Below are positions 677 through 3,435 of a DNA stretch of 24,000 bases, one piece after another. Location of the stretch: the NCBI GenBank assembly GCA_036639195.1, contig JAVWJF010000005.1, forward strand, positions 5,114-29,113, read 5' to 3'. The notes under the pieces were generated by a model. That model searched no databases, had not been told where the DNA came from, and saw only the letters and a list, made by a program, of their open reading frames with translations. The position numbers and the translations under genes are program-made. Every line of letters begins with the position of its first letter. Position 1 is the first letter of the stretch. Source of the DNA: Longicatena sp. (lineage in GTDB: Bacteria; Bacillota_I; Bacilli_A; Erysipelotrichales; Erysipelotrichaceae).

Positions 677-1033
677 ATGCTTGAGCATCTCTTAGAACAA
701 GTTTTGCCAGAGATCATTTCGATCTTGGAAATTATTGGAGTCATCGTTATTTTGATTGGCTCAACAAAAGCATTCTACCATTATGTCATCGCAAGTATAA
801 AAGATGATGAACATCCTATTCGAATTGAATTAGCCAATGCATTAGCGTTAGGGTTAGAATTCAAAATGGGAGCCGAAATTTTAAAAACGGTATTGGTAAG
901 AAACATAAGTGAAATCTATGTTTTAGGTGCTATTATTCTGCTGAGAGCATTGTTATCCTTGATGATACACTTTGAAATCAAAGCAGAAAAAGAGCATAAC
1001 CATACATCGGATGCTTCACCAAATAACTACTAA
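677..1033 (+). CDS. small integral membrane protein, DUF1622-like
   Basis: About 118 aa with two to three hydrophobic helices and the LALGLEFKMGAEILKTV motif I associate with DUF1622. The AAAGGA Shine-Dalgarno at 664-669 fits the ATG at 677 better than the ATG at 671. Confidence 0.65.
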   Translation: MLEHLLEQVLPEIISILEIIGVIVILIGSTKAFYHYVIASIKDDEHPIRIELANALALGLEFKMGAEILKTVLVRNISEIYVLGAIILLRALLSLMIHFEIKAEKEHNHTSDASPNNY

Positions 1034-1062
1034 AAACAACAGCCATTGAGCTGTTGTTTTTT
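1034..1062 (+). terminator. Rho-independent terminator after the DUF1622 gene
   Basis: AAAACAACAGC (1033-1043), loop CATTGA, then GCTGTTGTTTT followed by a T-run. Confidence 0.8.
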
Positions 1063-1255
1063 ATTTAATAGGAAAGTTCTATTTATAAACAAACTACAAA
1101 ATTTCTAAAAATCTGCATTATGAAATAGAAAGCTAGATAGTTGTTAGATTCCGTTATTTATTTTACGAAAATATAGGACGAACAAGGTATATTTTAAGGG
1201 GCGCATCAAAATATATCATATATAGAATTGCATCTTATTTGTACTATGTTATACT

Positions 1256-2654
1256 ATGAAAAAGACAAGGATGGTGCTCATGAAAACAGTGACGATGTCA
1301 CAAAGGTTCTACTATCAAGAACTTGAAAAAAACGTTAGAGAATGTGTTCGACAGGACATTGAAACGTATGCGTCAATGCTTCATAAAGCTTATCGTATGT
1401 TATATGATATCTACTTTTATAATGCACCAAAACCACAAAACATGTGCAAAGATTTAAAACAACAATATCATACCAGTGATTATCTTCCTCTTTCTGCTAT
1501 AAATGAGGCAAGAGGTATTTTGAAGTCAACGATTGAATGTAATAAACGACAACAATTATCCTCATTAAAAAGGATTCAACGTGTAGAGAAGGAAATGAAG
1601 AAAATCACAACTAAAATAAATCTTATACAAGAACATTTAAGTGTATATATAGAAATAAGTAAACAACATAAAACAACAGAGTTAGACTATCTCATGGAAA
1701 TCGAAGAGAAGGCAAATTTGAAAAGCCTTATGCATCAGAAATCCATGCTTTGTTTTCGACTTCATAGAGAACGATTTCATCTTAAAGGTCTAAAAAAGCG
1801 CGTAAAACAAGTATGTTTTGGTGGTAGAAAAAGAATGAAAAAACAATTCGCAATGTGCAAGCAACATGAAGAATGGAAAAAAGAGTTTCAACAAGCACGA
1901 ATGAACCGTATGGTGATACCCCGGTTGACGTCAAGGAAAGTATGGGAATAATATCTTTAAATATCATATTGATGAAAATACCTTAGTATATAGAAGTATA
2001 CAAAAGGACATCGTATTACCGATCGAGTTTCATTACGATAAAGAAGAACTCGTTCGAGCAGTGAAGATGAAACATAATACACCAGGAAAAGCGATAGCTT
2101 ATGAAATAAGAGATTATGGAGAATATTTTATTATCAAAGCAATCGTAGAACTTGTTGAAAAAAAGCTTGTGAAACAAACCTGTTATGGAACCATTGGGAT
2201 TGATTTGAATATTGATCATATGGCGGTATGTGAAACAGATGATAAGGGAAATGTCGTAAACACAAAAATATATCGCTTTGATTTAAGTAAAAAGACAAGC
2301 AATCAAAGAAAGGCAATTTTACAACAAAGTATCAAGAAATGTTTTGATGATGTAAAAGCAAGACGAAAACCAATCATCATAGAAGAGTTAGATTTTGAAC
2401 AAAAGAAGATGGAACAACTTTATAAAAAGAAGAAGTATAATGCAATGTTATCAACATTTGCATATGCGCAAATCAAAGAATATATCATAAGAAGATTTTA
2501 TAGAGGAGGAATAGAAGTCATTTGTGTTGATCCAAGAAACACTAGTCAAATAGGAAAAGAAAAATATAGGAAAGCAAAGGGGATGAGTATCCATATGAGT
2601 GCAAGTTATGTAATTGCGCGAAGAGGTATGGGATATAAAGACACAGTAACATAA
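1256..2654 (+). pseudogene. TnpB / IS605-OrfB-like RuvC-fold protein gene, split by a frameshift (ORF 1256/1280-1951 plus 1929-2654), without Zn ribbon
   Basis: The second ORF carries the TnpB RuvC order: GIDLN (Asp codon 2202-2204), IIIEELDF (Glu codons 2382-2387) and VDPRNTSQ. The segment after TSQ is only 13 aa with no CxxC pairs. The D-x-N-A-A-x-N-I position reads IHMSASYVIARRG (His codon 2592-2594). The downstream frame is open back to 1929 (RQGKYGNNIFKYHIDENTLVYRS...) and overlaps the end of the first ORF, so one indel within 1929-1948 (A-rich AGGAAAG) separates the halves. AAGGA at 1267-1271 favours the ATG at 1280 as the start. Confidence 0.6.
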
Positions 2655-2949
2655 GAAGATTATGATGTAACCATATTATGATGATGATTACTAGAAGATA
2701 GTTACATTGTGATATGGACGAAATTACATAATGATCAAAAAAGTCCATTATGAGGAGAACAGCGTACCACTTCGTATGTGTAAGTATAGGAAGAAGGCTA
2801 TTCATAATCATAATGGATAATGAGGGAGCAAGAAATCCACTCATGTTGGAAGATGCAAATCTTTTCAATGATTCATTTATGAATCACTTTCTTGTTGCCT
2901 ATACAATTCATTCACATGGTGTTAGAATATAGGAAAGGGGGGATCAGCC

Positions 2950-3435
2950 ATGGATCGCTTAGAAATTATTCGCGGAATTGTCGATCAATATATCGCCAGT
3001 ATACAAGATGAATCAACGAAAAAGTTTGCCTATATTCATACGTATGGGGTTTCTCAAAGTTGTGCAATGCTTGCAATACGAAGACATGCAAATGTAGAAT
3101 TGGCTTGTATTGCGGGAATGTTACATGATATTGCTCGCTATGCAGAAAATCATCCACATGTAGGTCATGCCAAACGAAGTGCTATCCTATCGAAACAGAT
3201 TTTAGAAGAATTGGCTATTTTCACAGAAAGTGAAATACAAATTCTAACCAATGCCATTTTCCAACATTCAGACAAGATGTTAAGAGATGGTGGAGAAATC
3301 AGTGAGATATTGAAGGATGGAGATGTCTTACAGCATTACTTGTACAATGTTAACATTGAATTATCCCCAAAGGATAAATTCCGTTTGTTTTATTTACTAG
3401 AAGAGATACACTGCGATACAAACGATACTTTATAA
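2950..3435 (+). CDS. HD-domain phosphohydrolase-family protein
   Basis: 161 aa with the H...HD motif (GMLHDIARY) and a downstream His cluster. A strong SD (AAGGGGGG) precedes the ATG at 2950. Confidence 0.8.
   Translation: MDRLEIIRGIVDQYIASIQDESTKKFAYIHTYGVSQSCAMLAIRRHANVELACIAGMLHDIARYAENHPHVGHAKRSAILSKQILEELAIFTESEIQILTNAIFQHSDKMLRDGGEISEILKDGDVLQHYLYNVNIELSPKDKFRLFYLLEEIHCDTNDTL

Follow-up and report, generated by a model that had tools for sequence, protein, structure and literature searches.

How is a tnpB-like gene to be understood that is split over two reading frames, has no zinc ribbon and carries His where the third catalytic Asp of the RuvC domain is expected? Such a gene lies in the window, by which we mean the whole stretch of 24,000 nucleotides analysed here. 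The host genome is metagenome-assembled, 86% complete and divided into 414 contigs. The explanation that we consider very probable is that positions 1063-2894 are a single decayed insertion sequence of about 1.83 kb, tnpB-only and of the IS200/IS605 type (IS1341-like), with a protein of the RIIIr-4 branch and a five-hairpin scaffold, which was inserted after the T-run of a terminator and is most likely inert. The copy is a commonplace relic rather than a new regulator. The coordinates of its features are collected in Table 1.

Inspection of the open reading frames gives two co-oriented frames on the plus strand, 1256-1951 and 1929-2654, which overlap by 23 nt (1929-1951). A step of one base joins them into a read-through protein of 465 amino acids (P0001). 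The ATG at 1256 is an alternative upstream start: the N-termini of the homologues align at the ATG at 1280, which is therefore likely the true start, so that the real product has about 457 amino acids. This agrees with the preliminary description of the locus, made from the sequence, in which the two frames were taken as one TnpB-like gene of about 458 amino acids.

The TnpB/OrfB-like nature of the product, also proposed there, was examined with profile models. NCBIfam TIGR01766 (TnpB-related) matches the window protein with 42.3 bits, above its cut-off of 32. Partial matches in the C-terminal half, below the respective cut-offs, come from the guided_TnpB model NF040570 (56.9 bits, cut-off 100) and the Cas12f2 model, and the Pfam models OrfB_IS605 and Cas12f1-like_TNB give weak matches only. 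An AlphaFold2 model computed with 59 homologues as input has a mean pLDDT of 89.6, and the predicted structure has the WED-REC-RuvC fold of TnpB and Cas12f. The best Foldseek matches in the PDB are Cas12f, Cas12e, Fanzor2, Cas12g, Cas12m, ISDra2 TnpB (8exa) and RuvC; their E-values lie between 1.5e-6 and 9.4e-4. The TIGR01766 score together with the structural matches confirms that the gene product is a TnpB-family protein. Ahead of the RuvC domain the model contains a long helical hairpin (residues 76-136 and 142-181), in line with the long N-terminal coiled coil noticed earlier.

The RuvC-I and RuvC-II motifs, GIDLN and EELDF, had looked intact and they are: in alignments of 23 and of 59 sequences D316, E376, H446 and R455 are all invariant. 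Between NTSQ and the His there are 14 residues without a Cys pair, as the short cysteine-free stretch described before implied. None of the 59 aligned sequences has a zinc ribbon in the stretch from the NTSQ strand to the last RuvC helix, and neither in the window protein nor in any aligned homologue do RuvC-II and RuvC-III enclose a C4 zinc finger (TNB).

Whether this configuration defines a clade had been raised as a question, and the relatives indicate that it does. A word-indexed search returned 78 relatives, for the most part intact, 440-490 amino acids long and from Erysipelotrichaceae; a profile search through 1.84 billion cluster representatives gave 4069 relatives at E <= 0.001, of which 1178 reach E <= 1e-30. 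The His is shared by 59/59 aligned homologues and, among 144 new top matches of the profile search, by 130 of the 131 distant representatives in which the RuvC-III position could be scored. Two CxxC motifs within the last 160 residues occur in one of these 144. Judged from the alignments, the missing zinc finger and the change from Asp to His are traits of a clade and not signs of decay.

This clade has been described, and the suggestion that the configuration might be novel does not hold. Altae-Tran et al. (PNAS 2023, PMC10691335) defined a major TnpB clade, RIIIr-4, by the replacement of the RuvC-III Asp by His and the loss of the C4 zinc finger, and argued from conservation that it is active. 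On these two defining traits the sequence of the window protein matches RIIIr-4. The likeness extends further: both RIIIr-4 and the window family are transposon-borne, mostly with a solo tnpB gene and a long 3' noncoding region (PMC10691335). The TAM screen of Nety et al. sampled all five major TnpB clades, and the sole active rearranged protein named there is an RII-r5 protein (PMC10278001). In the later literature we found no paper testing RIIIr-4, nor a protein of this clade that had been tested biochemically. Features of its own in the Erysipelotrichaceae subfamily are a REC region with a long two-helix coiled coil, a five-hairpin 3' scaffold ending in a hairpin and TTTCTTG, and insertion after terminator T-runs; we did not find the coiled-coil REC, the scaffold or the terminator insertion described in the RIIIr-4 literature examined. 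The window copy differs from RIIIr-4 as described in being a pseudogene.

To map the lesions we used a codon alignment of the window with five homologous loci (L086, L087, L088, L090 and L039). At the junction the homologues read R-M-L-I-P-G-R-R-Q-G-K-Y-(G/S)-N, while the window has the codons ATA CCC [C] GGT TGA CGT CAA GGA. The alignment points to two lesions, an extra C and an in-frame TGA. In the preliminary description a single frame change was placed within 1929-1948, at AGGAAAG. However, in frame 0 the sequence from 1929 on already follows the consensus RQGKYGNN of the homologues, so the shift is not inside that interval and both lesions lie before it. All other invariant residues are kept in the window copy, which suggests that the inactivation is recent.

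TGA closes 146 of the 984 long open frames of the genome (15%) and is thus a normal stop codon in the host; TGA as a sense codon is thereby ruled out. In the window itself none of the 16 long open frames ends in TGA (13 end in TAA and 3 in TAG), which is compatible with chance given the genome-wide fraction.

Table 1. Positions of the element, its lesions, its catalytic codons and its flanks in the window.
Feature	Position	Strand	Basis
Intrinsic terminator of the host DUF1622 gene; 12-bp hairpin 1032-1061, T6 run 1057-1062	1032-1062	+	
Left end and 5' untranslated region, starts ATTTAATAGGAAAGTTC	1063-1279	+	left-end motif common to relatives
tnpB-like pseudogene, type without zinc finger and with RuvC-III His	1280-2654	+	homologue alignment, profiles, model
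CCCC run, one base longer than in homologues, frame shifted	1919-1922	+	codon alignment
TGA in frame, where the homologues have a nearly invariant Arg	1926-1928	+	codon alignment
RuvC-I Asp codon, D316 of the read-through protein, motif GIDLN	2202-2204	+	invariant in 59 sequences
RuvC-II Glu codon, E376, motif IEELDF	2382-2384	+	invariant in 59 sequences
His codon, H446, at the RuvC-III Asp position	2592-2594	+	invariant in 59 sequences
Omega-RNA-like scaffold and right end	2655-2894	+	conserved length, common fold, covariation, sharp ends
P1	2658-2736		
P2	2743-2818		
P3, loop GCAAGAAA	2820-2844		
P4	2845-2869		
P5	2870-2885		
Tail CTTTCTTG	2887-2894		
Flank directly past the right end, putative guide position	2895-2914	+	analogy with ISDra2 TnpB; flanks diverge exactly here between copies

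The boundaries of the element follow from comparison with its relatives. A left-end motif is common to Traorella, Dielma, the loci L087, L088, L090 and L092 and the window: an (A/G)T-rich start followed by TAGGAAA(T/G)TTC. The right end of the family is a hairpin followed by (N)TTTCTTG. In the window TAGGAAA is found at 1069-1075, with an inverted repeat 1077-1084/1123-1130 after it, and at the other end a hairpin (2869-2886) precedes the tail. Since both family end motifs are present, the element spans 1063-2894. The inverted repeat reported earlier at 2869-2886 is this right-end hairpin.

The element was inserted immediately past the T-run that belongs to the terminator of the DUF1622 gene upstream, and it occupies the space between this terminator and the HD-domain gene's promoter-like site (2900-2928). 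Neither the window flanks nor the Traorella and Dielma copies show a duplication of the target. In Traorella, in Dielma and in the window the ends are of the IS200/IS605 type: they are sharp, with a hairpin just inside the end, the target is not duplicated, and the element lies 3' of a short fixed target. The relatives compared for an empty site keep prs and the DUF1622 gene but have no HD gene beside them.

In other genomes, too, a hairpin of this kind and a T-run stand before the left end, at about 20 independent insertions. This set (window 1032-1075; L039-L042, L058, L062 and L070, at about 2790-2840; L034, L050, L055 and L069; L036, L051, L087, L088, L090 and L092) is without exception, as about 20 of 20 independent left ends of the TAGGAAA type directly follow a hairpin and a run of five to eight T that form the intrinsic terminator of the upstream gene. 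These sequences suggest that the family targets terminators, with the T-run as its likely TAM or target; in the window the terminator is presumed to be both the insertion target and the TAM-side flank of the element. In the Holdemanella subfamily (Holdemanella and Eubacterium loci L044, L046, L038, L061 and L063) the putative left end is a different one, TCACAATCTAA..., without a T-run flank, and several copies share further sequence upstream of the gene, so that the actual left boundary may lie elsewhere or the copies may be nested in another repeat.

The preliminary description regarded the noncoding 295 nt downstream of the gene as a candidate guide-RNA scaffold or transposon end. Both roles are supported, but only 240 nt (2655-2894) belong to the element; the last 55 nt are intergenic DNA of the host. 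In 20 loci the distance from stop codon to right end is 227-271 nt. Single-sequence minimum-free-energy folds give the same five-hairpin layout in 17 of 17 loci at a mean identity of 48%: long P1 and P2, a short P3 with a conserved 8-nt loop, P4, P5 and a tail of 8-9 nt.

Covariation, which had been proposed as a check of this region, is found in P1. Here RNAalifold gives 18 pairs, of which 15 show compensatory double changes. Paired cells make up 92.3% of P1 against 65.5% in shuffled alignments, and none of 500 shuffles reaches any of the five measures. When the partner strand is slid by 1-3 columns pairing falls to 27-43%, a control that is somewhat favourable to the structure because P1 was derived from the same sequences. 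G-U pairs are frequent, which fits a transcript of the sense strand. The stem of P3 varies in sequence among subfamilies and its loop is kept; P3 is taken from single-sequence folds only, as a one-base bulge in some subfamilies shifts the register of the MAFFT alignment. Of the repeat that had been pointed out near the start of this region, ATGTAAC (2665-2671) and GTTACAT (2701-2707) are indeed there, but in the family consensus ATGTAA pairs instead with a second TTACAT near 2727-2732. A search of 1000-3100 against Rfam returned no family at E <= 1 apart from a chance match to SurA.

In ISDra2 TnpB the 3' end, as far as the right end of the element, encodes the RNA scaffold, and the guide lies in the flank. 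By this analogy and from the conserved fold, 2655-2894 is most likely the scaffold of a guide (omega) RNA.

The distribution of copies shows that the family is mobile in other hosts. A search for further copies, which had been recommended, found none in the 86%-complete host genome, apart from a right-end remnant of about 125 nt on contig C184; the family is multi-copy in Traorella and Dielma. A scan with one genome per species gave 46 loci in several genera of Erysipelotrichaceae, and the carriers include Traorella, Dielma, Holdemanella, Breznakia, Anaerorhabdus and [Eubacterium] hominis. Traorella massiliensis has six almost identical copies over about 1.87 kb, with sharp divergence at both ends, and a seventh that is 98-99.6% identical. 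Dielma has at least five copies, 93-95% identical over about 1.96 kb. No conserved neighbour gene was seen across the family, and the neighbours differ at every site.

No transposase gene adjoins the tnpB-like gene of the window, as had been stated for TnpA. Genes for Y1 TnpA (PF01797) number 0 in the host genome, 0 in Dielma, 1 in Traorella (a solo IS200-like gene) and 8 in Holdemanella porci. For IS607 TnpA (NF033518) there is no match above cut-off in five genomes, the matches being large serine recombinases with at most 47 bits. Linkage to a Y1 tnpA is found in one of 54 family loci (226 kb), namely L089. There the C-terminal part of a Y1 (IS200-type) tnpA lies directly upstream on the same strand (560-1000), truncated by the insertion of an IS66-family transposase gene; the family protein of this locus (P0005) is 46% identical.

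As a default, we take it that a Y1 TnpA acting in trans may have moved the element. The solo Y1 tnpA of Traorella was considered for this role and rejected, as it belongs to an IS200-like element with unrelated ends. That solo element too lies just past a terminator-like hairpin and T-run (L081, about 1300-1470). Dielma has several copies but neither a Y1 nor an IS607 enzyme, and for this reason we also considered movement free of these transposases: the subfamily would home to intrinsic terminators as a safe harbour and TnpB with its RNA, or an unknown partner, would take part in mobilisation. We judge this combination to be very unlikely.

In the window copy itself the gene is disrupted by the two lesions, the extra C and the TGA, and in the 86%-complete genome neither a second copy nor a Y1 or IS607 transposase was found; the copy is most likely inert. 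Three other accounts of the locus have to be weighed against a decayed, probably inert insertion sequence. The disruption could be an error of assembly or consensus, with the gene intact in the organism and the element a functional single copy. The extra base lies in a C homopolymer of a metagenome-assembled genome, where an assembly error is possible; the genome was assembled in 414 contigs, every invariant family residue is retained and both the RNA scaffold and the two ends look intact. However, the TGA, a second and independent lesion, follows four bases further on. It stands where an Arg is nearly invariant, in a genome where TGA is a regular stop, and two errors within ten bases would be required. 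We therefore find this account unlikely. That programmed ribosomal frameshifting or recoding of the stop codon joins the frames is hardly credible: the 23-nt overlap speaks for it, but 78 of 78 homologues are single open frames without a shift here, readthrough of the TGA would be needed as well, and conservation of a slippery site is not seen.

The remaining account is that of a domesticated, nuclease-dead RNA-guided repressor of the TldR type, a kind at which the preliminary description hinted, that would act on the neighbouring HD-domain gene. TldRs are immobilised, tied to a fixed neighbour gene and degenerate in their catalytic residues. The likeness is that the fliC- and oppF-associated TldRs, too, are derived from TnpB, have an altered RuvC-III region and lack the zinc-finger region; further, the gene of the window is solo, without a transposase, and co-oriented with the HD gene, and its RuvC-III residue is non-canonical. 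In contrast to TldRs the window family is mobile, multi-copy with transposon ends and without a fixed neighbour, and it shows no degeneracy in its Asp, Glu and His, all of them invariant. Moreover the window gene is itself broken, and past the right end of the element there is a promoter-like site belonging to the HD gene itself. A repressor of this kind is thus highly improbable here.

For the decayed insertion sequence ISDra2 (IS200/IS605 of Deinococcus radiodurans; PDB 8exa) serves as the guide to a mechanism. The window family resembles it in overall fold, according to the Foldseek comparison of the predicted model, and in having a 3' scaffold that reaches the right end, a putative guide position in the flank, the presumed TAM side at the left end and no target duplication. 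ISDra2 has an Asp-Glu-Asp triad, a zinc-finger TNB domain, the TAM TTGAT and an adjacent Y1 tnpA, whereas the window family has Asp-Glu-His, no TNB domain, a T-run as left flank and no adjacent tnpA. By analogy, in intact relatives about 240 nt past the stop codon would be transcribed together with the gene, and this 3' transcript would fold into the five-hairpin scaffold. The flank past the right-end tail (N)TTTCTTG would supply the guide, and the Asp-Glu-His protein would cut the empty donor site beside a T-rich TAM, by which the element would be retained. This takes as an assumption that an Asp-Glu-His site can carry out guide-dependent cleavage without the zinc-finger (TNB) domain. In the window the point of entry is the stretch that separates the DUF1622 gene and its terminator from the HD-domain gene's promoter.

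As the window copy is a relic, it has little importance for this window. The comparative set, on the other hand, is a ready test system for the RIIIr-4 branch, with defined ends, a covarying scaffold of about 240 nt and a T-run flank that suggests a TAM, and Traorella massiliensis is a cultured carrier with seven nearly identical intact copies. Proteins of this branch have His in the active site and no zinc-finger domain for substrate loading, which raises the question of whether they cut DNA, and which. Insertion next to terminators and the architecture of the scaffold are properties of the family and may merit a separate look in intact copies.

The remnant on contig C184 (L002, about 960-1090, minus strand) is solo and degenerate and runs from the end of P2 through P5 and the tail. 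It is 83% identical to window 2806-2893, similarity to the left end of the element is not convincing there, and it lies about 60 nt past the terminator of a gene whose C-terminal end may be that of formate-tetrahydrofolate ligase. A match of 35 nt to P5 and the tail is also found in [Eubacterium] hominis (G011:C2:125094-125129).
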